Below are positions 13,180 to 45,969 of a stretch of DNA of 64,000 nt, piece after piece (within the stretch, counting starts at the first letter, position 1; each line of letters opens with the position of its first letter). The position numbers and the translations under genes were made by a program. The stretch comes from Amphiscolops sp. MND2022 (Eukaryota): contig OZ076409.1 of assembly GCA_964187785.1 (NCBI GenBank), positions 61,754,001-61,818,000 of the forward strand, given 5' to 3'. The notes beneath the pieces were generated by a model, which worked only from the letters and a program-made list of their open reading frames with translations, did no database searches and had not been told where the DNA came from.

Positions 13180-13983
13180 CGTTCCCGCTAGGTCTTTGCT
13201 TCTGTTCGACATCTCTTAGCAAGATGGGAACATAAGCTGACCCGCGGGACACTAGAGGAAATGGGACATATCCAAGGCACAATTTAAAGTAGCAAAGGTA
13301 TTAATGAAAAGGTATCTTTGTTCTAGCTTTTTAGAAGACGATTCGGTGACAGTGTTGTTGCTGAAACGGCTTTCGCTGGAAAGTCTTGTTTCCCATTAAG
13401 ATGATGTTGATCTTCGTGCTAACGACAGATCATTTTACAGAGAGACGTGATGAAAATTTCACTGCTCTTGCGCACAGAACCCTGTACTTCCATTACCACC
13501 GGTTGAAAAGTGTATTCATTTTCTATTAATTCGCCATATTTCTCAATTCGCTTCAGCCTTGGTGGTTCCCGGGTTGCATGACGAGCCTTGATTCAAGCGA
13601 CTGGGTGCAAGAGCAACCCCAACTATGACATCCCACACCAGCTGTTTACCCATTATCCTTAAGAATTATGGTAACACCGTTTGAGCGTTTGCCATCAGTT
13701 CGGCACAGACCTCCGCTCCCTTCGTCAAGTAGCAACATTGAGTCATGGCATTATGCCCCGTCACTTCGCTCCTGCATTTAGGACTTTAGGGGTATGTGAA
13801 CCTGAATGACTGGGTATTAACAAAAATTTTGACAAAATCTGCCACGCGTTTTCAACCTTGTGAATTTCAACCAATAGTATTAAGCTACTGGACCAAGTAC
13901 CAGCGACGCTTGTCTTAAAAAATTTACGCCGAGTGGCTGAATGTAATCAGCCAATTGACTTTAAAGTAAGTGACCATTTACCC
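13180..13983. repeat. Decayed mosaic of a CRE-like RLE fragment (~13415-13710) and MITE modules (~13180-13280, ~13715-13983)
   Basis: Diverged copies of sequence at 6470-6780, 7050-7170, 6010-6100 and 7740-7942. Confidence 0.65.
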
Positions 13984-16294: not shown

Positions 16295-18069
16295 TGTCGT
16301 AAGCATTTAAATTAATACCACCATCATTCTGATGGTCATGATTATGCTTGCTAGCTGAACTGTCTTTGGGGTTAATATTTTGCAGTCCTTCGGAATTTAT
16401 TTCCGGTCTCTCGGACGGAATGTCCCATCTGTTTTGTGTCATGTGTCCTGACCCGGCACTAAGGGCGGATTGGATTTGTGGGAGTACTTGGTTGCTTATT
16501 GCATCACTAATTGCCCTTTGGATCTGAGAATTGACACTACACATCATATCATCTAACTCTCTTGATAATCTAGAGTTCAATTCACTTGACAACTTGTTAA
16601 TCTCAGCACTAGAGTTGCCACCAATTGAGTTTCGACCATAATCGGCATTATTACCAGGATCAATGTCCCTTGTGACTGAGTGCCTGTTTTCACCATTATT
16701 TCCTAGTTCATCTGCAGAGGTACTACCAGGCCTTCTACCGAAATTGCTACTAACACTTCCGTCTCTTTCATTTCTATTAAAGTGGTTTTCCCCCAGCATT
16801 ATGTCAAGGTTCTCCAAGTCAGAAAGCATCTCAATTCCTCTAGACTTTCTAGCTTTCTTTTGTTTCCTTGTAGTAGGCATCAAGATTTCAAGGTTGAATA
16901 TTTTATTTGGTAATCTAGTTTTGCAATCTATAAATGCGAAACAAATCAACTGATCTGAACAATCGGTATGGAATTAATAATCACCTCAAGGAAACATTGC
17001 TATATATACCCTTACAAGTGTGATCAAATTCCATTTGTAAACGACAAATTCCTTAATGGTCATGAGGACCGACATACAGCTAGTTAGCACCTCAAAGACT
17101 TTCAGGAATTCGTCCTAGTAAGGTCAAATGTTATTCCAAACATCACGTGGTTATAGGTGTGACAGGCGGCGTGCCCAACTTACATTGACCGTGAGTTAAC
17201 ATCAAACAAATAACTAACGTACTTAACATCAATACAAATAATAAAAATGTTAACAATGCACTGTTCATTGCATTCCTTATTACAAGGTGTTGAGACAGCA
17301 CGTGCTACCACGTGGCTTGCCATGTGCCGTCTAATTCCCGTATCAAATTGAATAAATCATGATCAACAAACGCAGCAGTGACATTGGTGCAAGTTATTTT
17401 CACGAGGCCGAAACTGGCCATGTCCGGGGTTTCAGTCTTGCACTGGGAAAAGGTGGGGGGGGGCTTCATTCCAACTGCAATTATTATTATGCTCATTTCT
17501 CACATTTAAGCAGAGGGGGAGTATAATTATAGCATCAACAAGTGGACTAAAGTGAATTTGAAATAATAGGTCCGGTTATTACTATCAAAGCAACGTCAAT
17601 TAACTATTTGTACAAAATGGCCGGAACCGGCCGTTTGACCAAGTAATACAGCACAGCAAGCGTTATTTAGGAAATAGGCCTAATTAGGCCATGATAGCAA
17701 CAAAGCTAATATAGCACAACAAATACAGCGCTCTGATTGGATAAGACAATGCGCTCAAGTGACGCTTTTGGATCAGCGCTTAGCATCACTTGAACACGTT
17801 TCCTATACTGCCTTACAGTTGCTTTATATTACATTGCTCTGCTGTAATTGCATTCAACACATTTGCAACATAAAACATCCCAATTTGGACAATTCCAAAT
17901 TGTATTTAACAGACTAATATTCAGTTTGGATAAATAAACTAAAATAGTTAAAGCGAGTCTTGGCAATTGCAGTTTTGAGTTTAATAAATGGGTAATGTAC
18001 CTGGGGTAATTTCTTGTCCGTATCCCGAGGTCGTATAGTTGTTGCCATCACAGGCGGCAGCCTGCGACA
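16295..18069 (-). repeat. E1 3' LTR (1775 bp)
   Basis: Direct repeat of 30633-32406. Contains the last ~29 codons of ORF3 and a copy of the gag 5' region (ATG 16880). Confidence 0.97.
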
Positions 18070-18841
18070 CTGCGGGTGCAATGAAAAGTAAGCTGCCGGC
18101 GTTAAGACCGTTCACGTACGCTTCCCGCCTCAATTTGGTGATGTACTCAGGCTCTCCTCTGGGGGTCGATCTGTCCATATACCACTTGATTTTTTCCTCT
18201 TTGATTTCATCTACTGCTCTCCCGCAGACCATGCAACTAGTACACCGTTGTCTGCTTATATCGTCGTAGGGCCTCGAGTTCTGAATATGATATGAGGCAC
18301 GGAAGCCCCCACTAGTTGATTGGACCAAAGGGGTGTCTTTGCTTGGGCCCTTTTCGTGATCCGGGGGAGATAGGGGCGACTCCAAAACTGGCAAAATCGT
18401 ACTACAAATCTTGATTTTTGATTTCCCGGCCTTCTTCGGGGGGGCGTAGCACCTATCTATGTCGAAATACCTGTGATCCAGTTTAGGTGTCATCTCAGTA
18501 TCCGTCTTTGACGTGCTTGGTCCAGCCACCATATCATTTTCCGTTGTGTCCACCGTCATAATTCGTCCTGCGATCAGCATTGGGCTCGACGTAACCTCTT
18601 TCTCTATGCGGGCGATTAATTGTTCCGTGTCGGTAGAACAGTCCGATTCCCAGTATGAGGACTCTTCTTCATCGCTAGAGATGTAGATTACTGAATCAGT
18701 AGATTCATCTGAGTCGCAACCTTCAAGATCAAATAATTTCCTTGAGAGGTTAAATTTGCTCATTATGTATTTCTTTGCAATTTTGAGTCTAGGCAAGTCA
18801 ACTGTTTGTCGATGAAATATGAGATTGAATGAATTTATCAA
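17981..18841 (-). CDS. E1 ORF3 (env position, sense): non-env protein of unknown function with CxxC and SIM-like motifs
   Basis: Collinear with E2 51363-52370 (KIAKK, ISSDEEES, PV.ESP.SPP.HE.G, C.VCG, SQ.AACDGN.Y). No signal peptide or TM helix apparent. True start uncertain. Confidence 0.8.
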   Translation of the reverse strand: MINSFNLIFHRQTVDLPRLKIAKKYIMSKFNLSRKLFDLEGCDSDESTDSVIYISSDEEESSYWESDCSTDTEQLIARIEKEVTSSPMLIAGRIMTVDTTENDMVAGPSTSKTDTEMTPKLDHRYFDIDRCYAPPKKAGKSKIKICSTILPVLESPLSPPDHEKGPSKDTPLVQSTSGGFRASYHIQNSRPYDDISRQRCTSCMVCGRAVDEIKEEKIKWYMDRSTPRGEPEYITKLRREAYVNGLNAGSLLFIAPAVSQAAACDGNNYTTSGYGQEITPGTLPIY

Positions 18842-19826
18842 ACTTAGGGTATTAGCCGAGTTCGGTCTTTTCCCGGCAATTCGTTGTGGCGGTAGAATTC
18901 CTCAGTCGAATCTCCCAATCCGACATAAACATTCTTGAATGGAATTCCATAATTAGTTGGCTGCCTTTGATAATCCAATGTTTACCCCCCATCTACTACA
19001 CCGCTTGGAGAGCTGTGAATAACACTCGAGTCATCAAAACCAACTTCACTATTTTCAAGTGGGTAATTAACAGGTCGCTTGAAGGTAATTAACTGCGCTC
19101 GTCGTAGCTCTTTCTCAACATGGCGTTAGCCAATCAGAATTACCCATTGATAAAATGAAAAATTAATAAATAAAATGGCGAAAAATAATAATTTTGACTA
19201 TTCTAAAATGGCGATTTCTAACTAAGGGTAATAATGGCAACGGAACAGAACGGTAAAGGTAAGTAGGGTAAAAGGCCGTAATCGGCCACTCAACTAACGA
19301 AGTTATAAATAACGAGGAATTTTCTGTACATTTCGCTGGCAGACTCCGTGTACAGTTTTAAATATGTAGATAATCGAATAATATTAGTCTGGTAAATCTT
19401 CAGCCACGAACTCCAACTCTCCGATCCTATCTGATTGTTACATTTTCAATTCCATCTAACTTCCATTTGTCTCCATTCAAATTCAACACATTTGCATATT
19501 CGTTACACTTTGCTATTACGACGTCCTTTCCTCTCATCACGAGTGGCATCTCCCTCTCAGAGAATCTCGGGTTCCTTCCTTCCCCAGCCGAGATTGGCTC
19601 AATCACACAGTCCCTTCGTTGTTCCTCATTCTTCTACCTTGGACTAACGATACTGGAGAAGCATGTCTTCGAGTACAGGTTGGTCTGGTTTTCACATGTT
19701 GAACTAGCTTAGCTTGATCAGGGCTAAATTTCGTTCGTACAGCGCTTCCTGTTTCCACTAATAGGCACGTGATAACACGTTTTGTTCAAGTCTAAGATAC
19801 TTCCGGAAGATTTCTAACGCGGCAAT

Positions 19827-22800
19827 ATGGATTCTTTTCGAGGAAGCATACCGCCAAATTTTATCTCTTTTCGTTTAGAGAACCAAACAACTGAAGTTGT
19901 GAATACACCAGCTAACCCCTCTGACAGCGTTTCGACAAGCAACCCCTTGTCTGAACAGACTGAGCAAGTCCAGCATCCAGCTACGTCTCAAGAATCACTC
20001 GGCCAACGAATTGACGAAGCCACTTCCTCCCATGACGCCGATAGTGACCCAGATGTTACTACATATGCAGACAATATGGTGCGTCAGTTGGAGGGAGCGC
20101 AAACATCAAGCCTTCCGCAAGAGGGGACAGAGCAAAGAGGCCAATTCTCAGAAGTCAAACTTGATACCCCAAAGGATCCTGTCATTACGCCCATCACTGA
20201 GCCTAGAAGAGCGAGCACCCCTCTTTCTGATAATGTGGGGGAGACCCCAAGTGCTGACCTTTCTGCTCTAGAGTCAGCCTTTCGAGTAGTCGGGACACCC
20301 GGATCCCAATTAGTTGAACTTGTGGATATTGATCTTTCAGCCAACACCACTGGAGATAGCCCAACCCTGCAGCAGGACACGGAAGCAGCTTCCTCGATAG
20401 GAGACGCTCCACCCCTCCCTGGTGGGGAAATAAGAGTTCGATACCTCACAGAGCCCAGCGGAGATGAGGGGGCAACCGACCAGTCCAGCGTGATAGCTCC
20501 AGTAGCTCTATATGGAAGTCATCCTTTCTCTCACGCCTCTGGAACAGATGGAGGGGACGAAACTGGACCTGACCCTCACGTTCCAGGTACCAGTGGGCCG
20601 TCGTCCGGGCAAGGCGCAGCTCAGAAAGAACCACCACATCTCTCAGGAAGGAGTCGGGCAATTCTCAAGGAGTATTTTGATGAGTCGCCACCCTTGAGGT
20701 TCCCCGTAGGCCAATCCACCGTCACCTTCACAGAGCCGCAAGTATATCACTTGTTGAGAGTCCTTACCGATGAGACTCTAGGACGGTCCTTCTCAACCAT
20801 GGAAAAAATGGTTATTGATGCGGTTCGAGGCAGGCCAGCCATTGCTCCATCCAGGACTGCACATTTCTACTCGGGTAGACGAGCTCAGACCCCTGGACCT
20901 GCAGCCATGGGAGATTCCAGCGGAAGTGACACCGAAAGGGAAGCTACTCTGGGGGACAGAGATGTTGGATCAACTGAAACCGAAATGACAGGAGAGTCCT
21001 TCTATTATGGGGAGACTGACAGTGCAACGGAAATGGATCTCATAACCAAGTCTTTCAAGAAGGTCACACAAGGTCAAGGCGCTCCTGAACCGCAAACTCC
21101 CAGTCAAGACATATCACAGGATGTTGAGATTGATGCCCCAGAGTCCAGTAGCCAAGATGATACTTTGCTTGAGGTTAGGAACCAAGCTCTAGCCGCACCC
21201 AGCGCTGGATCCTCCGGGACTAAAAAGAAGAAAGGAAGCAAGGCCCTTTCCAGACGTGGGGTCCCTATGCGGGAAGAATTCTTTAGCAAAATTGGATGGA
21301 CGAGATCCTTCATTTCTGGCCCAGCAGATCCTCTTCATAATCCACTCATGGTCTGGTGCCACATTTGTAAAAAGAATTTTTCCATAAAGTCAAAGGGGCC
21401 ATACGAAATCCTCAGGCACCATCGGACTGCACGTCATCTGCGTCGAGACCAGCGTTGGCGATACGAGCACCTCCGCAGCGTCGATCCAGTCACAGGGAAG
21501 ACGCAACACCGAGTCCGAGGTGGGAACGGAAAACTCCTGACCAAGGTGGAGTTAGCTAGAGAGCTGCCCAAATTCAGGAATGTTGAATTAGTGGACATTG
21601 GTGAGCGCTTTCCCTTTTATGACGACTTCGTCAAAGGCTCCACCACTACCATGACCACCCCTGAAGCTCGCCTCAAAACTCAGCTCTGCCTGGTTGGAGA
21701 TTACATCAGGACCCAAGGCGATATGATGGTCTTGCGTAACCTGTGGTCCCGAATTGGATCGTTCACCAACCATCAAAGCAGTTTCAACGATTTTGATTGG
21801 GGTGAAGAAAGATTGTCGGTAAGTACTTTTCGCCTCACTCATTGACAGTCTCTCCTAAGTCTTCCTCTTTCCTATTTAGTCCAAAGGGTGTTTTCTGTCT
21901 TTAGGCGATTTTCCAACATTTCTTCATCTGTTGTCTTGATGAAATCGCGGAGCAAGTCAACTCCCAACAGTGCTTCTCCCTCGAATTTGAAACAGTAGGA
22001 GTTTTCAAACACATGTCCATCAAGTTCTGGAAGGGGTCTGAACTCTGCAGGGTGTTCGTGTGTCGTAGCTCCCGATTCACTACAGATGTTACCGGCGAAC
22101 TGGGATCTCTTTCTCGCCTCCTCTCCGCTGTGTCCACAAAGCCCGGAATAGTCGCCTGTTCGGGATGTCATCCAGATCTACCCAGAACCATTGATGAGTC
22201 TGGATATTACAACCAAGGGGTTCAGAGCTGTCCTCGATTTGAACATTTCTCCCTAGCTGGCCTCATGCATAAAACCAGCTACAGCGTCTTTGGGAAAATA
22301 GATTTTTTCTCTGTCCTGCAAGCTCTGATGGTCTCTCTGGGCGGTTCTCTCATGGAAGACTGGGTCATCAGAAGTCCTGAGCTCACCAAGGTGAGTAGTT
22401 TTCTTATAGAATCTTCATCTAGGGAACAGGAACTGGGTCAGGACGTTTAGATATTCCTATCATGCTAACGCAGGTTTAATTGGTATTTCAGGCCATAACC
22501 AGTTGCAAGCTAGAAGTACCAACCCTGCCCATTCTTTGCCGAGAGCTCATTGCCGAGTGGAAGTCTGTGGTGCGCTACCTCACTAATCACGCACCCTTGC
22601 AAGAAGGATCTGGCTCCAGAGGAAGGGTTAGATTTCCTTATCTGCACTTAAGCCCCTAAGGGTTTGGGTTGTCCTTATCCGTCAAACAAATTAAAAGTCC
22701 GTTTTCCAATCGTCAATTGGCCATATGTTTGTTCCAGGCACAAAGTTTCGAGTGGTCACTGATATGTGACGAATTCTTCACCGTTAAGCTGGAGTTCTTC

Positions 22801-24051
22801 AGCAAGATCGTCAATGACTGTGAGTGTAGTCCTGTACAATTTTCGTGAGAGAAAACTGTCTTGAGTTGGACATCAGTTTTGTTTTTAGTCGTTTCCAGCT
22901 TCACAGTGAATCTGCAATACCGCCGGGATGCTTCCTTCTATCTATGCGGAGAAGTTAGCCGCTTCCTCAGCCTGCTTTGCTCCCGAATCTATACTCCGGA
23001 CACTGCCCCAATTGCCAACGCTTGGTTTCTCCTCCTCCGGTTCCAGACCAGTGAGGGTACTTTCCTCCCCGGAGACGAATACCTGATTCGTCTCAAGATG
23101 AGCAATCGAGTGGCAACGGCAAGTAGAGTCAAGGCTGATGGAATCCATTTCGGCCAGAAAACTGAACGTCCTGCCATCCTGGCCACTGCCGATAAGGTAA
23201 AAGCTGATTTCGTCAGGGACAGCCAGCAGTACATCCAGTTTTTGATTAATGGAGTACTTGAGAAGACAGCTTTCAGTACCAACCTCGTAAAAGGATTGGC
23301 GGCCTTTGATCCTTATATAATGCTGAAGCGACCCACGGATGTAGCTTTGCGGCACTTCGAGGTACTCTACAACACCTTTGCACTTCGATCTTGGGTTGAA
23401 GAATCAAATGAGTCTCAGTGTCGGGACCAGTATATTCAGTTGCTGGACCATCTCCAGACTGCCTTCGGTTCCAGCTTTGATATTACTAGCGTGGAACCCG
23501 ATTTGATTCAATTCCTGATGGGGCTTGATTTCCTTCATGAGCGTCCACACTTGTTATATCTCTTCAAGTTGAGTTGTTTGTGTTCAACCACCGTCAGCCC
23601 AAGTTACCCAGATGTCACCTTTGGAGAGGTCACCACTGCAGGAGGGCAAAGCAGATTTACGGACCTGGTCTTGCCTTGCCAGAGTTACATGGCTAATGTT
23701 GCCGGATCGGTTTTACGGAGCAGTGAAGACTCCCACTTGGCCAAGTTCTCTGCTCTAGCTGAGTCCTTTGGACGTGCTGCCTTTTCCTCAGAGTACGATC
23801 CTTGGGTTTATACTGACACTTTCGGTCGGTCAAGAATCTATAAGTCTCTCCTGTCCACTCACCGCAAAGCCGACTCAGCTCCGAAGAGGGTTTCAACGCA
23901 GGTCAATTTGGCAGAGAGTAGTACCGTTGAAGAGCAGTCTGCAGTAAGGATCCCCAGTAGCAAGAAGCGGAAGAAGGGAAGGAGTGTTTCCCGATCATCA
24001 TCATCCTCTGTCGTTGGTAGTCCTAGTAATGATTCTTCTACTAAATCCTGA
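19827..24051 (+). CDS. E1 antisense spliced gene, 5 exons: 19827-21818, 21905-22390, 22492-22626, 22738-22819, 22889-24051 (1285 aa); zinc finger plus degenerate hAT-transposase-like region
   Basis: All introns are GT-AG (donors GTAAGT, GTGAGT, GTTAGA, GTGAGT; phases 0,0,0,1). The spliced length of 3858 nt is open. Exons 2-4 (486/135/82 nt) are identical in length to E2. Zinc finger W..CHIC..H..H. Confidence 0.88.
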
Positions 24052-24301
24052 TTCTGTACATATGTATTTATGTACATCAAACTGTAAACTCTGTTGATTT
24101 CTTTATTTCTCATTTTGTTGTCACATTTGTATTCTGCTATCATTTCTTTGTTTCATGATCCCATATTTATTCACTTGTGCGGGATCATTGCTTTAGTGCC
24201 CTGTTGTTTATTCTGAAAATTCAGCTTCCGGGGCCAGAAAAAGAAATAAAAGGAAAAAGAAAATGAGCTAAGCGTTCTTTTGGACGCAATTTACTCTTTT
24301 C

Positions 24302-27300
24302 CTAGTATCTGAAGTCTTCTGAGTAGTTTGGGTTAGGATTAGGCCTGAGATTATATTTCCCTCCTCTGGGGCTCAAGCTCTCTTTTCTAGCATCATTTTG
24401 CGATATTTCGGGCACGATAATATCATCCCCCTTTTTCGGAGAATTTTGTGCATCGTTTTCATTCATCAAATTCTTTTCTGGAAAATTCGCATCGTCCTTT
24501 AGTCTTTCAACCGTATTCGGCGCAGGTTTTTCTTGATCCGTTGTGGAAACGGCCGGATTCGGCCAATCAGAGTTTTCATTCTCATTTGCTTCATTAGGTT
24601 CATTAGCATTGCTGACGTCATTTCTCATTCTTTCGGTTCTATTGCGTACAGCGTCGTTGACGTCATTCGGATAATCAGTCGTGATTACATAATCACTTTC
24701 ATTCTCGTTTGCATCATTCACGTTCGTTTCTGGCGTAGTCGGCCTCTCGCTATTCGTCAGGCTAGCCGGAATTGGCTCGTTGCCTCGTGTAGCTAGTTGC
24801 TCACCAAAGTTTGTTTCCCACGTTATTACATACAAGTCGTCTTGCGGAATGATTATTTCGTCGTCCGGCTGTAGGCGCTGTTCTCGGAAATTGTCCTCAA
24901 GTGGCTGATTCGGAATAAACTTTTTGAGACGAATTCGATGCAAAATCTGCGTTTTATTTGTATTAAGCCTGCGGATGATGTAGTTCTCATTAGGTAAAAT
25001 CTTCTGGACTATGAACGGTCCAACCCAACGATAATCCCTAAATGGAATTTTTGATCCTTGATGATCCGCTTTCGGTTGTAATACAAAACAGTAATCGCCC
25101 TCTTTGAGTGGGGCGGCTTTGGCTTTCCTGTCGTAATACTCCTTATATTTGATATATGACTGCATGATGTTCTGCTTTGTCTTGTCAATAAGGAGTTTGG
25201 TTCGGTTCTGGATTTCTTCTGCGAATTCAGTAGTCGGATGGATTTGCTCATTTGGGTTCATTCCAAGTTTGTGATCCAAGATGTTATATGGGATTCTCCC
25301 ATGGAACACTCTTGTCGGTTCGCATCCGATACTGGCATGATAACTAGTGTTATGATTGCGAACTGCTAAAGGCAAATACTTATGCCATTGTCGGCGATAT
25401 TCTCCACATGCCATTTTCAAATTCGTTTTCAATGAGGCATGTGTTCGCTCTAACTTCCCGATAGTTTGCGGGTGTTTGGTCGTTGCACATTTTAGGGTAA
25501 TGCCTAAAATCTGTGTAATTTCCGCAATGATCGTGGAGGTAAAGGCAGTTCCCTTGTCCGTAATGAGCGTCGTCGGTAGGTAAGAATGTTTGGTCATAAT
25601 ATCAATGATTGCTTTAGCTACATTGATCGCTGATGCGTCCGTAAGAGGATAAGCAAACAAGTATCGAGAGAAGACATCAATTGCAGTTAAAACATTTTCG
25701 TATCCTCCACTTGGGGGAAGATTCGGCAATAAGTCAATTTGCATGGCGTCTTCGGGTCCAAGGTCCCATTCCGGCAAGTTAAGTAGTTCAGGCGTGATTG
25801 TTGCATTTGGGACTCGTTTGTCCTTTGCACATTGTTCACACCCTTGTACCCACTTTTTGACATGTTTCGCCATGTTGGGATAATAGTATCTCTGTCTGAT
25901 CTCCTGCAGCATCTTTGAAATGCCTGGGTGCTTGTGGGCTGTCCCGTGTAGGGACTGAAGCAATTCTGGCAGCAAGTGTTGCGGGAGAAGAATTTGATGG
26001 TATTTTATATTCCCAGTTTCATCAAAATATTGCCTTGTTAGTATGTCTTCCTTGATGACAATTCTTTCCAGATTATTAGCGTAATGCCTGTATCGAGCAT
26101 CTTGTTGCAGTATGTTTTCTGAGTACTCTTCATGAAGGAGCTTCGCTTTCAGTTGTTGCAGTACTGTATCTTTGGATTGCTCAATAATTATCTGGTTCGT
26201 TTTCCTCAATCGGACCTGTATTTCAGGTTGTTGTTTGACTAAGTTAGTAGATAGAGTTTGTATTGTGATAGTAGGTTCTTCAGTTACAGGGTTTTTCCTG
26301 ATTGCTTCTTTCCTCGCCCAATATTGTTCTTCAGTCTCATCGTCGTCATTTGTGTAGAAGATTTGCTCTTCCTGTGAGATTCCTGCTGATTGGACGTTTA
26401 TTTCTATTGGCAACGTTTGTACATCTTCTCGGATTTTCATTACTAATTTGTCCTTTGGGTCTGCTTCCAATCGGGACAAGTAATCCGCTGCCGTATTCTG
26501 TGCTCCTGGGATGTGCGCAATGACAAAATTGAACTGAATTACATAGTCGCACGCATTCCACAGGGCTGGGGGTACGATTTTCGTTTGGAAAAATCTTGTT
26601 ACGGCTTTGTTGTTGGTTAGGATTATGACCGGTTTCGGTGCACCCCAGAAAATATGCCCAAATTCTTTAAATGCGAAGTAGATCGCGAGAAATTCTTTTG
26701 CATAAATTGACATCTTTATCTGGGCTGGGGTGAAGGTTTTTGAACCATAAGCAACCGGTGCATATGATTTGCGGATTGACGTGAATTTCTGACTCGGGTC
26801 ATCTTCAATTAGTACTGCATATCCTGCAGCACCAAAGCTTGCATCTGTCATTAGGGCAATTTGCTTGTTCGGGATGGGTTGTTGTAGGGCCAAGTCGCAG
26901 CATTTGTCTAGAGCTCGATTAATTTCCTCAAATTGTTGAACCAGTTCTTTGGACACTAGGACTTTTTCGTCACTCTTCAGCATCTTGTAGAACGGAGCAA
27001 GGCGTTCAGACAGTCTTGGGACATAATTCCGGTAGTAGTTCAAGAAACCCAAATATCTCTGTAGAGCCTTTTTCGACTTCGGAAATTTGGTTTTTTCTAG
27101 GAAATTCTGAACATTCTGCCGTTGGGGCTTGACGCCTTGTGCGGTTATTGTCCTGCCAAGGAAATCGATTTCTGTGGCACCAAAATGGCACTTGTGCATC
27201 GTCAATTTAAGGCCTGCTTCCTGGATGCATTTGAAAGTTGCTCTCAGGTTAGCAATGAGGTGATCGGCGTCGTTGGCTGCGATGCCAATATCGTCTACAT

Positions 27301-29510
27301 ACTGTGCACATTGGTCCGCTTTTATGACTTTGTCAAGGTACTCTCTCATAAAGCTAGAGAATGCGGACAGTGCTCTATTAAGGCCTTGTGCCAGTCGTCT
27401 ATATGCAAATGTGCGGCTTGCAAAGTTAAAGGCCAACATTTCGATTGAACGTTGGTCAGCCATCGGAAGGCAATGATACGCTTGTGAACAGTCTAACTTG
27501 CAAAAGAGTTTCTTGCCTGCCATGTGTTGGGCGGCATCGACTAGGGTACTGACTGGATGATTATTGTTAATATAATCATCAGAGATTAGGTTGTTGATTT
27601 TTCTCAAGTCAACCAGAAGTCTCAGTTTCCCATTCGGCTTCTTTTGTGCGAATATTGGGCTGGCGTATTTCGAGAACGGTAAGGTAGTTATTATGCCATA
27701 TTTGTGGAGCATGGCTAATTCAACTAATATGTCCTCCTTTAAGTTTATCGGTGCAGGGAGGCTCTGACTATAGGCTGGGGAATCATCTTTGGGTGTCAGC
27801 TTCACTTTGAATTCCTCATTCATGCCTATGTCGAATCTATGTCTCGCAAAAATATCATGGAACTCCACTAGTAATCGTTCGATTTTCTCTTTTTCATCAG
27901 GTGTCAATGTGGAGTCTTTCCAGTCAAAGTTTTCCAGGAATTTTGTTCTAGATTCCTCGTCCTTTGTGGGATCAAGTGATTCTAGTTCCTGTAGGGCTAG
28001 TAATTCACGGAGTATCCTTTTTTGGATTGGTGTATGTTCTTCCGGATTCCCTGGGTTCTCTGGGGTTGGGAACCAGTAGTTTTCAGTATTTTGTGGATTT
28101 TTGTTAGTCTTGATGAGACTACTGACGTAATGGGCTGCCTGCTCTTGGTCATTTTGTAGCAAATGCCAGGTTGAAGCTGGGTCTACCGGTTTAACGTATT
28201 TCATCTGTTCTGGCGTCATGACTGAGAAACTGGCAATATGGAGTCCCTTTTTGAGCTTGTAAGGGTGGTCTGTGAAATTATTCACCGGTATCTGTATATT
28301 GCCATCATTCAAACTGACCAAGGCTGGACAGAATGTGATGTCGCCTTCTTCATGGAGAAGGTCGCTCGGTTGTAAAATCCCTGTGACCGTGTTTTCAGGG
28401 TACAATAGGGAATTGGTCCTAATTAGGACTCTGTCGTTTGGCGGAATGGTTATTTCGGTAGGGTTCAGAATTGGTTCAAGTACATTCGAGTATTTGTGAT
28501 CAGCTGTTTTGAGCTGCATCGAAAAGAATGGGAAGTTCAGTATTCCTTGCCTCATGTCCAGAACTGTATGGTTTCTCTGTAGGAACATGAGTCCTATAAT
28601 CGGTCCTGTCAAGTGTTCCATTACTATGAAAATTTCATGGAACTCTATGTCACCAACTTCAAATTTGAGCTCTATCGTACTCTTTGGAGTTTCTAGTTGC
28701 CCATTTGCGACCATTATCTGGAAATTCGGAGGTGGACCCTCCCGGATGACTGATTGCGGCGATAGGAGCCTGATTTTCCGGAGGTCCATTTCAGGGATTG
28801 CACTGGATAAAGCACCAGTGTCAATAAGTCCATCTATGGTCAGTTCCCCAAAGTCCATAGGGAAATACAGCATGCGTTTTTTGCATTTCAAGTTTATGCT
28901 GGTGGACAGAGGAATACAGTCTGGTTCTCCTTCTCTAGTAATGAGGATGTTCTGAAATTGACTTTCATCAAGTAGTGACTGTGGTATTGTTTCTTCTGGT
29001 TTGTCTGAGGTTTCGGTCCCCAAGGGGTTTGGGAACACTGGGTGGCTTGTCCCATCATTCATCTGCCATGTTTCAATCAATGCTCTGGTTTTCTTGTTAT
29101 GGGTGATTGGTGGATTGTCGTGGACTGATCTGTTATAGAGTTCTATGTCATCGATAACGTATTGGAATTGCAACAAGTCCTGGTTGTAAAGTTCGGTATC
29201 CCAATAGGGATCTCGTCCATAGTCAGGATCTATGTAGGTAGGGTTGTAGTCGTCTACCAAGGGAATGGGCCTGAATCGGCTAGTGAAAGCAGATGTGTAA
29301 TCAGGGTCCCATACAGGAATTGGTTTTTGGAGCAAATGGGTATTATTATAGGTGATAATGGTAGCTTTTTCCATCTGTTGCTGCCAGACAACAGAGGGGT
29401 AACCCTTCAATTGTTGTTGGTATTCATGGAAAGTTTTCGTCGGAGGATCCGACCTGATGTGTTGACGGACGGATATTAGTTGGTTGTATTGGAGTCGTGG
29501 CGAAGTTAGT
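24302..29510 (-). CDS. pol: E1 pol polyprotein (PR, dUTPase-like, RT, RNase H, integrase), reached by -1 frameshift from gag
   Basis: LIDTGA protease, YVDD RT, TDAS..E RNase H, H-H-C-C and D-D-E integrase, GPF motif. The frame is open from the slippery site at ~29510. Confidence 0.95.
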
Positions 29511-31218
29511 TTTTTGACTCATCTTTGTTTGATGAGGATTGGGTATTGGAGGACGTTGGTTTGTTGTGTGGTTTGGGTGCCTTGGAGTCATTGTCGGTGT
29601 CTGAAGAATCTTCAGGTCTGGTTCGTTTGGGTTTCAAGTGAGCACCTGCTCCCTGCCAACATCGCTCCTCTGGATGATTTTTCTTGCCACAAGTCCCGCA
29701 TTTAGGGTACGTTTTCTTCTCCGTCGATTTGCCTTGTTGGGCATCTTTTTCTTTCTTCTTTTTGAGTTTTTCACAGTCTTTGACCATGTGGCCCTTTTCC
29801 TTGCAGTAGTTGCAAGTTATATTTGACATTTGATTAGTGGACAGAGGGGTTTTATTCTTGGAGGATGAGGAGGTCATTGTTGCCATGGGTAGGTCATCTG
29901 ACTCCTCAAGGGCGTTAAGCTCTAGTTCCCTCTCCAAATGAGCAACTATTTCGTCGTAAGAGCCATTTTCTAATCTGGCCATGTTGACTGATCGCTTGAG
30001 TTTCGGAGGCAGTTTTGCGTACAATAGGCTGTCAATCATTTTTTGTGCATGATCGCCGAATGCTTTTTCTGCCCCTTGATTCAATTCTTCAAGGAAATCC
30101 GGTAATTTCATCGTGTTGGGATCAAAGACCAAGCGGTGCCATTTGTGCTTAGCAGTCGCTTGTGACTCGGGTTTGACGTATTTTCGTCGGAAAATGACCA
30201 AAACGTCTTCAAGAGTCTGTCGGTTGGTCGAGTTGATATTTCTGAACGTCTGAAGAGCATTCTTCCTCAAAAGCGAGTGGAAATGGTTAATCTTCATTTG
30301 TTCAGTCATTTCTGGCTGCATCTTGATCATAGTATGAAACAGATCTTCGAACAGTTCAAATTTCTCACTTTTGCCGTCAAAGGTCATGGTATTTGAGTTG
30401 ACCGGGCGTATGGTGAGTTGTTGGGCTGTTGGTCGGTTCTGCATGCTTGTCAAGACATCTGCCAGTCTAGTAATTGGATCAGATTCGGCAACCGGAGCGG
30501 GTCTTTCTTGTGCTGGGATCGTCGTGTTAAGGTTGATGTCTTCATAGGACTGGTCAAGATGATTCCGCGATAGAATCCGTCCTGTGAGAAACTCAGGAAC
30601 TTGATTCGGAGATTCGTTGTCTCCTGTCACCATGTCGTAAGCATTTAAATTAATACCACCATCATTCTGATGGTCATGATTATGCTTGCTAGCTGAACTG
30701 TCTTTGGGGTTAATATTTTGCAGTCCTTCGGAATTTATTTCCGGTCTCTCGGACGGAATGTCCCATCTGTTTTGTGTCATGTGTCCTGACCCGGCACTAA
30801 GGGCGGATTGGATTTGTGGGAGTACTTGGTTGCTTATTGCATCACTAATTGCCCTTTGGATCTGAGAATTGACACTACACATCATATCATCTAACTCTCT
30901 TGATAATCTAGAGTTCAATTCACTTGACAACTTGTTAATCTCAGCACTAGAGTTGCCACCAATTGAGTTTCGACCATAATCGGCATTATTACCAGGATCA
31001 ATGTCCCTTGTGACTGAGTGCCTGTTTTCACCATTATTTCCTAGTTCATCTGCAGAGGTACTACCAGGCCTTCTACCGAAATTGCTACTAACACTTCCGT
31101 CTCTTTCATTTCTATTAAAGTGGTTTTCCCCCAGCATTATGTCAAGGTTCTCCAAGTCAGAAAGCATCTCAATTCCTCTAGACTTTCTAGCTTTCTTTTG
31201 TTTCCTTGTAGTAGGCAT
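29506..31218 (-). CDS. gag: E1 gag (570 aa from MPTTRK), first 195 codons inside the 5' LTR
   Basis: Capsid-like FDGKSEKFELFEDLF region. Two CCHC knuckles (CNYCKEKGHMVKDC, CGTCGKKNHPEERC). Confidence 0.92.
   Translation of the reverse strand: MPTTRKQKKARKSRGIEMLSDLENLDIMLGENHFNRNERDGSVSSNFGRRPGSTSADELGNNGENRHSVTRDIDPGNNADYGRNSIGGNSSAEINKLSSELNSRLSRELDDMMCSVNSQIQRAISDAISNQVLPQIQSALSAGSGHMTQNRWDIPSERPEINSEGLQNINPKDSSASKHNHDHQNDGGINLNAYDMVTGDNESPNQVPEFLTGRILSRNHLDQSYEDINLNTTIPAQERPAPVAESDPITRLADVLTSMQNRPTAQQLTIRPVNSNTMTFDGKSEKFELFEDLFHTMIKMQPEMTEQMKINHFHSLLRKNALQTFRNINSTNRQTLEDVLVIFRRKYVKPESQATAKHKWHRLVFDPNTMKLPDFLEELNQGAEKAFGDHAQKMIDSLLYAKLPPKLKRSVNMARLENGSYDEIVAHLERELELNALEESDDLPMATMTSSSSKNKTPLSTNQMSNITCNYCKEKGHMVKDCEKLKKKKEKDAQQGKSTEKKTYPKCGTCGKKNHPEERCWQGAGAHLKPKRTRPEDSSDTDNDSKAPKPHNKPTSSNTQSSSNKDESKN
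29509..29515 (-). promoter_or_regulatory. -1 ribosomal frameshift slippery heptamer A AAA AAC (E1)
   Basis: TCA AAA AAC TAA ends gag, and the -1 frame runs open into pol. Same arrangement in E2. Confidence 0.85.
30621..30632 (-). promoter_or_regulatory. E1 primer-binding site TGGTGACAGGAG
   Basis: Abuts the LTR end. The 12-mer is identical in E2 and one mismatch from the tRNA-Leu-type PBS TGGTGTCAGGAG. Confidence 0.85.
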
Positions 31219-32406
31219 CAAGATTTCAAGGTTGAATATTTTATTTGGTAATCTAGTTTTGCAATCTATAAATGCGAAACAAATCAACTGATCTGAACAA
31301 TCGGTATGGAATTAATAATCACCTCAAGGAAACATTGCTATATATACCCTTACAAGTGTGATCAAATTCCATTTGTAAACGACAAATTCCTTAATGGTCA
31401 TGAGGACCGACATACAGCTAGTTAGCACCTCAAAGACTTTCAGGAATTCGTCCTAGTAAGGTCAAATGTTATTCCAAACATCACGTGGTTATAGGTGTGA
31501 CAGGCGGCGTGCCCAACTTACATTGACCGTGAGTCAACATCAAACAAATAACTAACGTACTTAACATCAATACAAATAATAAAAATGTTAACAATGCACT
31601 GTTCATTGCATTCCTTATTACAAGGTGTTGAGACAGCACGTGCTACCACGTGGCTTGCCATGTGCCGTCTAATTCCCGTATCAAATTGAATAAATCATGA
31701 TCAACAAACGCAGCAGTGACATTGGTGCAAGTTATTTTCACGAGGCCGAAACTGGCCATGTCCGGGGTTTCAGTCTTGCACTGGGAAAAGGTGGGGGGGG
31801 CTTCATTCCAACTGCAATTATTATTATGCTCATTTCTCACATTTAAGCAGAGGGGGAGTATAATTATAGCATCAACAAGTGGACTAAAGTGAATTTGAAA
31901 TAATAGGTCCGGTTATTACTATCAAAGCAACGTCAATTAACTATTTGTACAAAATGGCCGGAACCGGCCGTTTGACCAAGTAATACAGCACAGCAAGCGT
32001 TATTTAGGAAATAGGCCTAATTAGGCCATGATAGCAACAAAGCTAATATAGCACAACAAATACAGCGCTCTGATTGGATAAGACAATGCGCTCAAGTGAC
32101 GCTTTTGGATCAGCGCTTAGCATCACTTGAACACGTTTCCTATACTGCCTTACAGTTGCTTTATATTACATTGCTCTGCTGTAATTGCATTCAACACATT
32201 TGCAACATAAAACATCCCAATTTGGACAATTCCAAATTGTATTTAACAGACTAATATTCAGTTTGGATAAATAAACTAAAATAGTTAAAGCGAGTCTTGG
32301 CAATTGCAGTTTTGAGTTTAATAAATGGGTAATGTACCTGGGGTAATTTCTTGTCCGTATCCCGAGGTCGTATAGTTGTTGCCATCACAGGCGGCAGCCT
32401 GCGACA
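30633..32406 (-). repeat. E1 5' LTR (1774 bp)
   Basis: Direct repeat of 16295-18069, followed on the sense strand by the PBS. Confidence 0.97.
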
Positions 32407-38061: not shown

Positions 38062-39643
38062 TGTCGCAGTCTGCCGCCTGCGATGGCAACAGCTACCAGA
38101 TTGTGCCTAACGACAAGAGCGACATGCCGTTGCCTGCTGGGGTGCTCCCCCTATAGGTGAAATAGACTACAGGTCCGCACAAAACTATCCAGTTAAATTT
38201 GATGTCAGTATAAAGTATTTTAGTTAGCATTTATATTATTTTACGGACCATCGGTCCACCCGTCTAGAGTAGACAGTCTGACAAACTAATATCCTAGAAC
38301 TGATTATTTATATCAATTAGATGAGTTTTCATTTGTATTTACGTGTATAACTATGTAAACCAAATTGCCAGTGAGTCTGATTAATAATATCAAGGTGTAA
38401 AGAAGCTAAAAGGTAGTAAGGAAACGCGTTCGAATTACACTACCAACAGTATAATCGACGCGTGGTCCTTTCAGTTATTAACCAATCAGCTTGCAGTAAA
38501 TATTTCATTCGCTTGTGCTATACTGTGCTTACTCTTCTAGTTGCCATTAATCGATCGGACCACCAGTCCGTCACATGTAAAATACATGTATTGCTCATGC
38601 TGAAAATCACCTATGCAAACAATGGCTTAACCAAAGTAATCCGCATGTATTTAGTCTTGAAAGGCGTGCCGCCATTTCCCCCCCCCCCACTGAGTAATTT
38701 TACTCTGGTTCTAAGAAACGTTGCTAAATATAAATATGACGTAACAGTGACGTTATCCTTTGAGGGTTTTGCCCAGATTTGTTGCTATTTTTGGATACGT
38801 GACGCTGATAAAATTTGCTTGTCATGCTTCTCTTACTATATATTGGGGAACCGTGAGTCTCCCAGGGACAATCTCTCACGCTACTCAACTCAATTCAATT
38901 ACACTCTGTTCAGTGACAATTTCTGATGCGAATTTGGACTTAAAGTCCGCAACTACCTTATTTGACCTGATTCAATATATCCAGATTTGTTTTGTTGCAC
39001 TCATTCAGTTGAAGTAACTTAGTACGAACAATATAGTGTTATTTGAAAAGAACCTTTCAAATGCCTTCGACAAGAAAGCAGAAAGCAAGGGAAAAGCGAT
39101 CAAGGCAATCAGACGTGATGTCTGATCTAGAAAATATGAATGTCATGTTGGGTAACTACCAAGAAAATCAATCAGACATTGATCTAAATGAAAATGTAGA
39201 AATGGACTTAAGGTCCAATGGTACAAGGACCGACATCGTCAGGAATTGTGAGGATTTCAGAACGTTATTGACTTCTGAAGGCAGGAATAGGTACGAAATA
39301 CCTACAGAAACCAATAGACTCATCACTGAAGAGATAACTAGTCAAATGAATAGGAAAATTGATGAGCTGAAAAGGAACTTAGACACCCAAATTACAGAGT
39401 CTATTAATTCTGCAATACATGATTCAATCCTTCCTTCTATCCAAAATTCGTTATCAGGACAAAATAGTGGGTTAGGTACGAATGTGGACTCAAGGTCTAG
39501 TAGACTAAGCAGGAACGCCGAAGGTAAAAAACACCAAAGTGCTTGGGGAGATACCCATTGTAGAATACATTCAAATTCAAACAATCATCCCCATTCTAGA
39601 GACGACTCATTAAGTTCATTAGACTGTCGGGATGATCATGACA
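38062..39643 (+). repeat. E2 5' LTR (1582 bp)
   Basis: Direct repeat of 52276-53865. Contains the gag ATG at 39061. Confidence 0.97.
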
Positions 39644-40767
39644 TGGTGACAGGAGCCAACCCTACCCCTCGTATGGTTCCTGAGTTTCTTACTGGACGTC
39701 CCACACAATCCCGAGATAACCCGCAAAGCCAAGACCCTATAGATCCTCAGTCTCCGACCACGTCACCTCAAGACCAGGAGACCATTGGTCACAATTCGGC
39801 TATAGACCCTCTCACACGCCTTGCTGATGTTCTAACAGGCATGACCAATAAGCAAACCCCACAAACACTCATGGTACGACCCGTCAGTACAACTACACTG
39901 ACCTTTGACGGGAAATCTGAAAAATTCGAACTTTTTGAAGACCTTTTTCATACAATGATAAAAATGCAACCAGAAATGACTGAAACAATGAAAATTAATC
40001 ACTTTCATTCCCTCCTACGTAAAAATGCACTACAAACCTTTCGTAACATCAACTCTGCCAATAGGCAGACCCTAGAAGACGTACTCGCGGTCTTCCGACG
40101 AAAGTACGTCAAGCCGGAATCCCAAGCCACTGCCAAACATAAATGGCAAAAATTAGTGTTCGACCCCAACACTATGAAACTTCCAGATTTTCTCGAAAAA
40201 CTCAACCAGGGAGCAGAAAAAGCGTTTGGGGAAAATGCCCAAGCAATGATAGACAGCCTTTTATACGCTAAACTGCCCCCTAAACTCAAGAGATCGGTAA
40301 ATATGGCACGGCTTGAGAACGCCTCATATGAAGAGATCGTTACCCATTTGGAACGCGAACTTGAACTAAACGGACTTGAGGGAGGTGACGACATTACTGT
40401 ACCTACAATGTCTACTGCCCCTACAGCAACACGACCTGGAACTGGCCTCCTTTCTTCTGGTATTGATCCCAATATCACCTGCAATTACTGCAAAAAACCT
40501 GGCCACGTCAAAGACGAATGCCGAAAACTTAAACGAAAGGAGGAACAACGACGCAATGACGGGCAGGATACTAAAAAAGAATATCCCAAATGCCCAACTT
40601 GCGACAAAACAAACCACCCGGCGGAACGATGTTGGAAAGGCGCTGGAGCCCACCTCAAGCCCAAAAACCTCAAGATCGAAGACGCAAAACCAGACAACAC
40701 GTCTCCCAGCCAATCCGAAACCAATAACAAACAAACTACTTCTATCTTAAAAAACCCAAAAAACTAG
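39061..40767 (+). CDS. gag: E2 gag (568 aa from MPSTRK), first 194 codons inside the LTR
   Basis: Capsid region nearly identical to E1. Two CCHC knuckles. Confidence 0.92.
   Translation: MPSTRKQKAREKRSRQSDVMSDLENMNVMLGNYQENQSDIDLNENVEMDLRSNGTRTDIVRNCEDFRTLLTSEGRNRYEIPTETNRLITEEITSQMNRKIDELKRNLDTQITESINSAIHDSILPSIQNSLSGQNSGLGTNVDSRSSRLSRNAEGKKHQSAWGDTHCRIHSNSNNHPHSRDDSLSSLDCRDDHDMVTGANPTPRMVPEFLTGRPTQSRDNPQSQDPIDPQSPTTSPQDQETIGHNSAIDPLTRLADVLTGMTNKQTPQTLMVRPVSTTTLTFDGKSEKFELFEDLFHTMIKMQPEMTETMKINHFHSLLRKNALQTFRNINSANRQTLEDVLAVFRRKYVKPESQATAKHKWQKLVFDPNTMKLPDFLEKLNQGAEKAFGENAQAMIDSLLYAKLPPKLKRSVNMARLENASYEEIVTHLERELELNGLEGGDDITVPTMSTAPTATRPGTGLLSSGIDPNITCNYCKKPGHVKDECRKLKRKEEQRRNDGQDTKKEYPKCPTCDKTNHPAERCWKGAGAHLKPKNLKIEDAKPDNTSPSQSETNNKQTTSILKNPKN
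39644..39655 (+). promoter_or_regulatory. E2 primer-binding site TGGTGACAGGAG
   Basis: Abuts the LTR end (…GACA|TGGTGACAGGAG). Confidence 0.85.
40758..40764 (+). promoter_or_regulatory. -1 frameshift slippery heptamer A AAA AAC (E2)
   Basis: CCA AAA AAC TAG ends gag. The -1 frame is open for 45 codons up to the first pol ATG at 40899. Confidence 0.85.
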
Positions 40768-43700
40768 ATTCGCCACGACTCCAATTTGATACAAAATTAC
40801 GCGTCCGACAATATATCATTTCTGATCCTTCTACCGTATTCTACACTGAATATTATTCACCACTCAAGGGCATCTCATCAGCTGACTGGCAGCAGCAAAT
40901 GAGAAACATCCCTAACCAATTCTGCACTGTGGACCTCAGGTCCAACGGACTTGACTCGACTTCATGCTCCACCTGCCCTCTTCCAGAAATACCAGACTAT
41001 AACCCCTATTATATAGATCCGGACTACGGCCTTGACCCCTACTGGGACATCCATCTCTACAATCAACATCATTTATCCTTCTATACCGACTTCACCAAAC
41101 ATCCAACAAATATCGAACCTGATTGTCCAGCAACCGATAGTGCCCTTAACAGCGTTCTAAAGAACGCATCAGTCGATGCCTGGCAAACTAAACCCAATCC
41201 CTGCACTCTACCGGCACAACACACCCAGGGACACCAATTTGACAGCTTGGGACCACAGGTCTCTTTGACTACAGCAGTCGAAGCACGATTTACGAACACA
41301 CTGGTCACCAGACAAGGTGAACCAGACTACGTACCACTGACAACCAATCTCGGACTCAAATACAAAAGACGAATGCTCTATTTTCCAATGGATTTCGGCG
41401 AACTTACATTAGATGGCCTTGTAGACACGGGGGCACTATCTAGCGCAATCCCTGAAGCTGACCTACGTAAAATCCGATTATTAGCCCCTGAGTCAATTGT
41501 CAAAGAGGGCCCTGCACCCAACTTCCAAATAATGGTAGCCAATGGGCAATTAGAAACTCCAAAGAGCACAGTCGAATTAAAATTTGAAGTCGGTGACATC
41601 GAATTTCACGAAACCTTTAATGTCATGGAAAAATTGACAAGCCCATTGATTGGCCTTTCGTTTTTACAGCGAAACAATACCATACTGGACATGCGCCAGG
41701 GAGTCTTAAGTTTCCCATTTTTCTCCATGCAATTAAAAACAGCGAATCACAAGTACACTAATGTCATGGAACCTATCTGTACTCAGGAGGATATTACAAT
41801 TCCCCCTAATGATAGACAAATGGTAACATTGGCATCCCAAATGTACGACGATACCACTGTAACCGGCATCCTCCTACCGAGCAACGCACTCATTGAGGAC
41901 GGCGATGTTGCCTTTTGCGCGGCATTGGTCACACTGACCTCTGGTCAAGTAGAAATTCCGCTCAATAATTTCACTGACCACCCTTATACTCTCAAGAGAG
42001 GCTCGCACATTGCCAATTTCTCTGTCATGACTCCAGGGCAGATGAAATACGTTAAACCCATTGAGCCAGTGACCACATGGCACCTCTTACAGGATGATCC
42101 TGAAAATGCGGCTTTCTATGTCAGCAGCTTGATTAAATCTTCCAAACCAGAAGATTTTAAAGAAAGTTATTGGTTCCCTACTCCAGAGGACCCTGGGGAT
42201 CCACAACAACACACACCCATTCAAAAACGGATACTGAAGGAAATACTCAATCTTCAGGAACTTGAAAAACTGAATCCTCAGGAAGACCCTGAGTCCAGAC
42301 GACAATTCTTGACCAACTTTGATTGGACTGATTCAACACTGCAACCACATGAAATTGCACGCATTGAGGACTTACTTGTCGAATTCCACGATATATTTGC
42401 GAGACACCGCTTTGACATTGGCATGAACGAGGAATTCACGGTTAAGCTTACGCCGAAAGACGATTCCCCGGCCTATAGCCAAAGCTTACCGACACCTATC
42501 AACCTCAAGGAAGACATCCTCGTTGAATTAGCCTTACTACAGCGCTATGGGATTATCACAACACTCCCATTCTCCAAATATGCCAGTCCCATTTTTGCCC
42601 AAAAGAAACCAAATGGTAAATTGAGACTATTAGTCGACCTTCGGAAAATAAACAACCTTATTTCAGATGACTATATCAACAATAATCATCCTGTCAGTAC
42701 GCTAAGTGATGCAGCTCAACACATGGCAGGCAAAAAACTCTTTTGCAAGCTAGATTGCTCACAAGCATATCATTGCCTGCCAATGGCGGACCAACGGTCC
42801 ATAGAGATGTTGGCGTTCAATTTCGCTAGCAGAACCTTCGCCTACCGCCGATTAGCTCAAGGTCCCAGCCGTGCCTTATCAGCCTTTTCTAGCTTTATGC
42901 GAGAATACCTCGACAAGGTTATCAAGGCCGATCAATGCGCACAATACGTCGATGACATTGGCATTGCCGCCAATGATGCAGAACAACTCATCAAAAACTT
43001 CCGGGCCACTTTCCAATGCATTAGACATGCAGGCCTGAAGCTCACTATGCACAAGTGCCATTTCGGAGCAACGGAAATCGACTTCCTGGGCCGAACGATC
43101 ACTCCGGACGGCGTACGTCCACAACGACCACGAGTCCAAAATTTTCTGGAAAAAAAAAACAAAATTCCCGAAATCAAGGAGGCATTACAGCGCTACTTGG
43201 GATTCTTAAACTATTATCGAAACTACATTCCTAGACTATCCGAAAAACTAACACCATTTTTCAAATTGCTCACTAAAGACGAGAAGGTCATGGTAACCCC
43301 GGACCTATTGGACAAATTTTCCGAAATTAACAAAGCCCTTGATCGATGTTGTGAACTAGCACTTAAACAACCTTTGCCCAACAAACAAATCGCCCTGATG
43401 ACTGATGCGAGCTTTACGGCGGCCGGATATGCAGTCCTCATCGAGGACGATCCGCTTGAGAAATATACATCAACAAGGAAAGCATACGCACCGGTGGCCT
43501 ACGGCTCCAAGACCTTCAGTCGCGCACAACTCAAAATGTCCATATACGCCAAAGAGTTCCTAGCAATTTTCTTCGCCTTCAAAGAATTCGGACACATTTT
43601 TTGGGGAACACCAAAACCGGTCATTATATTAACAGACAACAAGTCGGTCACACGATTTTTTCAAACAAAAATCATTCCACCATCCTTATGGAACGCTTGT

Positions 43701-45845: not shown

Positions 45846-45969
45846 CTACAGGACTAATCTGACTTTAACCGGAAAAGATAAATCACTGCAACTACGAACT
45901 ATATACAAACACTTCAAATAGAATAAATACAACACCACAGCAAAGTTTACAAATGTACACTAGGTACAA

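Follow-up and report, generated by a model that had tools for sequence, protein, structure and literature searches.

Many gag-pol junctions carry a slippery heptamer with no visible structure downstream of it. Stimulators of -1 frameshifting are described 5-9 nt downstream of the shift site (PMC7618472), the frameshift efficiency of human immunodeficiency virus type 1 is reported to depend on the first 3-4 bp, located 8 nt downstream (PMC3561942), and annealed oligonucleotides alone were reported to stimulate -1 shifting (PMC3458567). Retroviruses are known to use the heptamer A AAA AAC for shifting (PMC12789967). In barley yellow dwarf virus (BYDV), the internal loop of a local stem-loop is described as pairing with an apical loop located some 4 kb downstream (PMC5009743, PMC7618472). 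Two full-length long terminal repeat (LTR) retrotransposons, E1 on the minus strand and E2 on the plus strand, are arranged head-to-head in the window analysed here, a stretch of 64,000 nucleotides of Amphiscolops sp. MND2022 (assembly GCA_964187785.1, contig OZ076409.1, positions 61,754,001 to 61,818,000). A first-pass annotation of this stretch had proposed that a 10-kb RNA duplex, named here helix H1, stimulates the -1 gag-pol frameshift of both elements. The present analysis favours, with a probability of roughly two in three, a natural antisense-type stimulator, in which a duplex formed entirely with a partner 9-13 kb distant would turn on Pol synthesis, with a second helix (H2) as anchor; it would act as a check on full-length RNA, and one lineage would have converted it to a local hairpin.

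Probable pairing between the gag-pol junction and a distal site

In both elements a heptamer of the X XXY YYZ type lies in the gag frame and is overlapped by a -1 pol frame, and a covarying helix, as a predicted structure, follows after 7 nt, inside the 5-9 nt range of stimulatory structures. The coordinates and sequences given in the first-pass annotation for the junction and distal sites of E1 and E2 were all correct on re-reading. The 17-nt block past the heptamer is indeed identical in both elements, although their pol DNA is 69% identical, and the pairing about 10.1 kb away was reproduced, with 13 bp and one bulge in E1 and 11 bp and one bulge in E2 (arm-to-arm distances of 10,098 and 10,111 nt, respectively). 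The E1 spacer between heptamer and proximal arm reads TAACTTC. When some 1,480 other anchor positions of the same element were compared with the same 10 kb, 0.07% (E1) and 2.1% (E2) of them had a complement of equal length, so that the two elements by themselves are modest evidence against chance pairing; H1 is placed beyond chance by covariation across the whole family. A shared 11-mer (AAGGACGTCGT, at about 19510-19520) that resembles the E2 distal arm was rejected, as it is not the homologous site. No Rfam family matched at gathering score between window positions 16000 and 54500.

A protein search of the same genome returned near-identical E1 copies only, and degenerate reverse transcriptase (RT) patterns were therefore used to sample diversity. 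The family comprises 5,084 copies by RT pattern and 436 by a variant pattern; the E1/E2-type junction occurs 1,037 times in the genome and the E1-type distal arm 1,188 times, and patterns aimed at two further families retrieved 3 and 5 copies. Fifty copies were picked for codon diversity, each with its junction and a 10-kb downstream stretch, giving 52 copies with E1 and E2. In 46 of them a heptamer was present with GCC[A/G]C beginning 7 nt past it, and the six without a recognisable junction (L036, L038, L044, L046, L123 and L127) were dropped. Eight junction types were distinguished (A, B, C, D, E, F, G1 and G2), each corresponding to one side of a well-supported branch on the RT tree, with F represented by a single copy. 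The heptamer is GGGUUUU in clade C and GGAUUUU in clade F.

A complement of 10-13 bp was found 9-13 kb downstream, in non-coding DNA, in seven of the eight clades. The span of H1 ranges from 8.9 to 12.9 kb (7.0 kb in one shortened copy), distances of part of the minus-strand loci being about 31 nt too short. Among the 35 copies outside clade B, the best helix with the own distal 10 kb reached at least 10 bp in 31 and at least 11 bp in 29, compared with 25 and 4 of 966 cross-clade pairs and with 4.9% and 1.5% of null anchors (n=53,959). The opposite-strand control gave at least 10 bp in 4/35. In motif-blind alignments of about 900 nt made for each group, the distal arm fell in one column in 33 of 34 copies (A 11/12, E1 and E2 included; D 8/8; G 7/7; C/F 4/4; E 3/3), in agreement with the homologous position claimed previously, and it ranked among the best-conserved windows. 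Where the antisense cassette and the sense open reading frame (ORF) are both intact, the arm lies at or within the gap between them.

Columns 1-5 of H1 never vary across clades, and in each of columns 6-11 Watson-Crick pairs of two or three types occur. The tree requires a minimum of nine compensatory changes, two in column 6, three in column 7 and one each in columns 8-11. With one hand-picked, well-paired and bulge-free copy per clade, columns 6-11 were Watson-Crick in 42/42 cases, a count equalled by 1/5,040 clade permutations. The column table omits L113, and the site of L060 was assigned by position; the L052 site used in the column, distal-fold and energy analyses later proved non-homologous. 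Complementarity between the two sites was found to be kept through matched changes in seven clades.

The partners of the G1 and G2 junctions were predicted before the distal DNA was examined and matched in 4/4 and 3/4 copies, the eighth copy being one base off at the homologous place. A further ten copies were held out, of which L159 was dropped for lack of a recognisable junction. The junction was present in the other nine, and among their eight non-B members a helix of 12-13 bp was found in five, two were one base off at the homologous site, and one carries an insertion that apparently places the site beyond the stretch analysed. The held-out clade-B copy had no distal partner, as predicted. 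On this comparative evidence, the pairing of H1 is very likely under selection.

Both sites could also be protein-binding motifs of the DNA in opposite orientation, or the proximal arm could reflect a peptide constraint accompanied by chance. The GCCAC:GTGGC core is invariant, and its form CGTGGC/GCCACG would be of the bZIP type; moreover, the distal arm lies in a promoter-like gap, where clade B has TGACGTCA motifs, and in the peptide encoded by the proximal arm a conserved Pro precedes Arg, His or Gln. This leaves unexplained the clade-matched changes in columns 6-11 and the blind predictions; the F and G1 arms read TGTGGC, and one compensatory change alters the amino acid. As the sole explanation it is refuted by these comparisons and retains hardly any probability; a role of the DNA could coexist with the pairing and help to fix the core.

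The first G of H1 is 7 nt from the heptamer for four heptamer types. The distance from the gag stop to the helix is 4 nt in clades A, B, C, D and G1 and 1 nt in E, F and G2, so the spacing of H1 tracks the shift site and not the stop, since the 7 nt are constant while the stop moves within the spacer. Bulge-free pairing enters the spacer by 0-2 bp only, and the invariant pairs of H1 are the first ones (G-C, C-G, C-G).

Additional predicted helices, local structure and clade B

Two features were absent from the first-pass annotation, namely the helix H2 and a clade in which a local stem likely replaces the distal partner. H2 (UGGCAG:CUGCCA) would be formed by CTGCCA(G), the best-conserved neighbour of the H1 distal arm, which complements (C)TGGCAG, a pair of Trp-Gln codons located 49-115 nt into pol, giving a helix of 7-9 bp. 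The proximal motif TGGCAG is present in 34/35 non-B copies, the background being 339 CAG among 1,024 Gln codons in their RT region, and in 0/11 B copies. CTGCCA occurs at most 110 nt from the H1 distal arm in 30/34 copies versus 60/1,453 other windows; two of the four exceptions keep a G-U pair, the others being L052 and L054. One compensatory change was detected in H2 (CGGCAG:CTGCCG in L054, L145 and L147), which replaces Trp by Arg.

In clades A, D and G the helices H1 and H2 cross; in C, E and F, H2 is nested. The latter three clades have a third helix with compensatory changes (GTGCG:CGCAC vs GCGCG:CGCGC), and a fourth helix that crosses the third was found in C and F, which suggests a long-range pseudoknot. 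Three or four long-range helices were seen altogether in L032, L035, L050, L056, L054, L066 and L069, from clades C, E and F. Scanning every 6-bp GC-rich complement group by group revealed nothing consistent beyond H1, H2 and these extra helices.

The absence of a conserved local hairpin, also noted in the first-pass annotation, was borne out: no local stem accounts for the motif in the seven non-B clades. Fold z-scores gave no significant local structure at the junction in any of the eight clades (clade A means of -0.5 for 60 nt and -0.05 for 100 nt), and no consistent local stem was found at the shift site in A, C, D, E and F. In G1 and G2, small hairpins overlap or follow the proximal arm, with mean z from -0.5 to -1.6. 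Neither a distal site devoid of conservation or covariation nor a local structure explaining the motif, the two outcomes open to computation that had been named as contrary to the proposal, was encountered. Minimum free energy (MFE) folds of 34 distal sites gave no shared hairpin around the distal arm, and the distal arms of L035, L050, L056, L066 and L069 can form a small local hairpin competing with the long-range helix.

The pairing might also affect the shift site in trans, the distal arm being supplied by a second genomic RNA or by a shorter RNA from an internal promoter region. Or it might be regulatory, with helices that alternate between the long-range pairings P1:D1 and P2:D2 and weak local GCCA:UGGC pairing, whereby frameshifting would be tuned or damped. 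CCAAT-like boxes surround the distal arm, with divergently oriented ORFs on either side, the GCCA/UGGC core is common to all four arms and would allow partners to be swapped, the distal arm of clades C and E can form the local hairpin mentioned above, and long-distance contacts destabilising the frameshift element have been described in umbravirus-like RNAs (PMC10602861). Against this, the local alternatives have just 4-5 bp over 50-115 nt, the L054-type change retains P2:D2 and breaks one P1:P2 pair, and there is no local stimulator to damp in A, C, D, E and F, which makes such a role quite improbable.

Clade B (11 copies) has kept the accessory region. A distal complement of at least 10 bp was found in 0/11 copies, a search for a distal partner of the clade-B loop gave no consistent candidate, and the proximal site of H2 reads TGGCAA or is missing, instead of TGGCAG. 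A 3' strand located about 35-45 nt downstream pairs with the same proximal arm, with 11 consensus pairs, and the MFE of this clade is -16 kcal/mol vs -4 to -12 kcal/mol in the others. In the tree with outgroups, clade B is nested among the clades that use a distal site (support 92/94), a position that points to secondary loss of the distal arms. Clade B has likely lost both distal arms, with a local stem on the same 5' strand taking over; the swap is suggestive only, because the stem shows no compensatory change and its fold z is about 0.

The helices could be real and still serve another step of the genomic RNA, such as packaging, dimerisation, export or reverse transcription. The position of the arms near the shift site would then reflect only the freedom of this part of pol to change, and A AAA AAC with the stop would shift enough alone. 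Long-range RNA interactions of retroviruses are reported to serve packaging (PMC12789967), the bipartite primer-binding site of Ty3 has been proposed to cyclise the RNA (PMC11381356), and H2 and the extra C, E and F helices lie beyond a paused ribosome. It is nonetheless an improbable explanation of H1, given the constant 7-nt distance to four heptamers, the end of pairing at the spacer edge and the behaviour of clade B, which replicates without either distal arm, keeps the proximal arm and gains a local partner.

Proposed role in frameshifting

H1 probably stimulates the predicted -1 frameshift into pol in cis, a role suggested by its position. It is read as the stimulator because of the 7-nt spacing, the invariant first pairs and the precedent of the oligonucleotides. 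Its calculated energy of about -20 kcal/mol also speaks for it, as opening the proximal arm takes about 2 kcal/mol in most clades. On the full-length element RNA the arms would pair as a helix of 10-13 bp at the mRNA entrance of the ribosome, acting like an antisense strand supplied in cis, and H1 is presumed to form in cells and to be the whole stimulator. H2 would keep the distal strand close to the junction. Most ribosomes would end at the gag stop within the spacer, never melting H2, and H1 would re-form quickly; H2 is read as an anchor because terminating ribosomes would not reach it. As a likely consequence, Pol would be made only from RNA extending past the accessory cassette. That such a full-length check is the purpose of the pairing is a tentative and rather doubtful suggestion.

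Several points weigh against a cis-acting H1. The helix is shorter than 10 bp in 4/35 non-B copies (L039, L052, L060 and L113), L052 has lost the distal site, and the relation of weak pairing to gene decay is only marginal (Mann-Whitney p 0.056, Spearman p 0.28). Distal sites were chosen by best complementarity and their homology was checked afterwards. Because they are invariant, columns 1-5 of H1, like the core of H2, give no information on pairing, and no pair of the clade-B stem has changed on both sides. In E2 an alternative site has an energy similar to that of the distal arm (duplexfold). The calculated energies ignore the closing cost of a 10-kb loop, and the distal arm of clade E takes 9-14 kcal/mol to open. 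Finally, the evidence is sequence-based, with both the frameshift and the transcript being predicted, and its paired part comes from one genome only. A search of viral contigs gave no relative, and 14 relatives were found in metagenome contigs of 1-4 kb, below the length needed to hold the distal site. In 2/6 contigs examined, relatives from one other assembly (L140, L141) carry the heptamer G GGA AAC with a stop, and GGCCGC behind a 7-nt spacer; the distal region is absent from these short contigs.

Features of the window and comparison with known systems

LTRs, a target-site duplication and a primer-binding site were identified, and the Pfam matches on pol (protease, RT, RNase H and integrase) are those of the Ty3/Gypsy order. 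The LTRs within each element are 99.9% (E1) and 99.1% (E2) identical. Pol is separated from the 3' LTR by antisense ORFs and, beyond a non-coding gap of roughly 1 kb in which CCAAT-like boxes occur, by a sense ORF. Coordinates are collected in Table 1.

Table 1. Positions in the window of the features of E1 and E2, followed by the H1 arms of seven clades, each read from a single copy.
Feature	Position	Strand	Remarks
E1, full-length Ty3/Gypsy-order LTR retrotransposon	16295..32406	minus	LTRs, primer-binding site, target duplication
E1 5' LTR	32406-30633	minus	5-bp target duplication GTAAC
E1 3' LTR	18069-16295	minus	5-bp target duplication GTAAC
E1 gag frame	29506..31311	minus	starts within LTR; two CCHC knuckles; TAA stop right behind heptamer
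E1 slippery heptamer A AAA AAC	29509..29515	minus	
E1 pol frame, -1 relative to gag	24302..29518	minus	protease, RT, RNase H, integrase (Pfam)
E1 H1 proximal arm	29489..29501	minus	GCCACGACTCCAA (RNA GCCACGACUCCAA); begins 7 nt past heptamer
E1 H2 proximal arm	29381..29387	minus	CUGGCAG; Trp-Gln codons of pol frame
E1 antisense accessory ORFs	19818..24051	plus	between H1 arms; no Pfam match
E1 H1 distal arm	19403..19416	minus	TTGGAGTTCGTGGC (RNA UUGGAGUUCGUGGC); non-coding gap, antisense cassette to sense ORF
E1 H2 distal arm	19336..19342	minus	CUGCCAG
E1 sense ORF	17981..18901	minus	reaches into 3' LTR; no Pfam match
E2, full-length element	38064..53865	plus	LTRs 38064-39643 and 52278-53865; 5-bp duplication CGAAT
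E2 slippery heptamer A AAA AAC	40758..40764	plus	
E2 H1 proximal arm	40772..40782	plus	GCCACGACTCC
E2 H2 proximal arm	40886..40892	plus	
E2 H1 distal arm	50872..50883	plus	GGACGTCGTGGC (GGACGUCGUGGC)
E2 H2 distal arm	50961..50967	plus	
Clade A (L040)			proximal GCCACGACTCT; distal AGAGTCGTGGC
Clade C (L035)			proximal GCCACGATTTCC; distal GGAAATCGTGGC
Clade D (L041)			proximal GCCACGCCTTT; distal AAAGGCGTGGC
Clade E (L066)			proximal GCCACGTCATCC; distal GGATGACGTGGC
Clade F (L032)			proximal GCCACAATTTC; distal GAAATTGTGGC
Clade G1 (L111)			proximal GCCACATCTTC; distal GAAGATGTGGC
Clade G2 (L115)			proximal GCCACGTCTTCG; distal CGAAGACGTGGC

The gag frame starts within the 5' LTR and crosses the LTR end and the primer-binding site (31218-30633 in E1 and 39061-39643 in E2), and the 3' LTR of each element holds a gag fragment, as gag begins inside the LTR. 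Residues 350-433 of E2 pol, between protease and RT, gave a weak dUTPase-like Pfam match below the cut-off (E 0.0018), and PF00692 is present in some relatives. E2 interrupts a tandem repeat of about 120 bp in its second unit (37907-38063 and 53866-53965). Elsewhere in the window, two 725-bp direct repeats (97%) at 54237-59297 enclose no long ORF and may mark a small non-autonomous LTR element; a near-perfect palindrome of 90 nt with 45-nt arms and no loop lies at 61537-61626; and 5900-14000 holds a cluster of nested repeats, both direct and inverted, that belong to another repeat family and have 15-nt sub-repeats. In the wider family, clade-D loci (L075, L077, L078, L088 and others) carry arrays of a repeat of about 32 nt with TATGCGGCAGTATGCGGA just downstream of the distal arm. 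In the single clade-D copy L038, the LTR-borne gag start is fused in frame to pol, the rest of gag is missing and the clade-D distal arm is kept; its use as a natural control with gag deleted was rejected, because a single copy is uninformative.

No precedent for a long-range frameshift stimulator in a retroelement was found in the literature searched, subscription literature lying outside the search. If the proposed role is correct, H1 would be the longest-range recoding signal found reported and the first in a reverse-transcribing element, and it would carry long-distance recoding from plant RNA viruses to retroelements, over double the reported span. The missing half of a frameshift signal could then be 10 kb off, invisible to window-limited folding and to short reporter inserts. 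The seven clade-specific duplexes and the one local-stem lineage form a natural matched set, with which it could be examined if a plain duplex at the entrance of the ribosome suffices for -1 shifting in cells, and they bear on how an RNA may sense its own completeness during translation.

The counterparts described in BYDV, red clover necrotic mosaic virus and pea enation mosaic virus RNA2 show the same kilobase-range pairing just 3' of the heptamer, and lead likewise to a -1 shift into a polymerase frame (PMC5009743, PMC7618472); for the present family, the dependence on pairing is proposed from sequence comparison. The family has a kilobase-distant partner (9-13 kb), but it lacks both the local stem-loop with a receiving internal loop and a distal partner in a hairpin apical loop, and for these reasons it is not classed as BYDV-type. 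Unlike in the BYDV-type elements as described, no local stem is apparent, and the first helix that the ribosome would meet is the long-range duplex of 10-13 bp; the span is 9-13 kb, there is a second anchor helix, and the host is an LTR retroelement without the traffic of an RNA-dependent RNA polymerase. Several long-distance contacts around one frameshift site, as in this family, are described for the class 2 umbravirus-like RNA CY1, which differs in its 2.7-kb genome, its local structured element and the destabilising effect of some contacts (PMC10602861). Of the -1 signals described at retroviral and Ty3/Gypsy gag-pol junctions, those of mouse mammary tumour virus and human T-cell leukaemia virus have the same A AAA AAC heptamer, spacing and gag-pol layout; the stimulators described there are a local stem-loop or pseudoknot 5-8 nt downstream, a pattern that clade B fits and the other seven clades do not (PMC12789967). 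In antisense-oligonucleotide frameshifting, a plain duplex a few bases 3' of the shift site is reported to suffice (PMC3458567, PMC1616946); those oligonucleotides are synthetic and act in trans, whereas the version of this family would be natural and genome-encoded.

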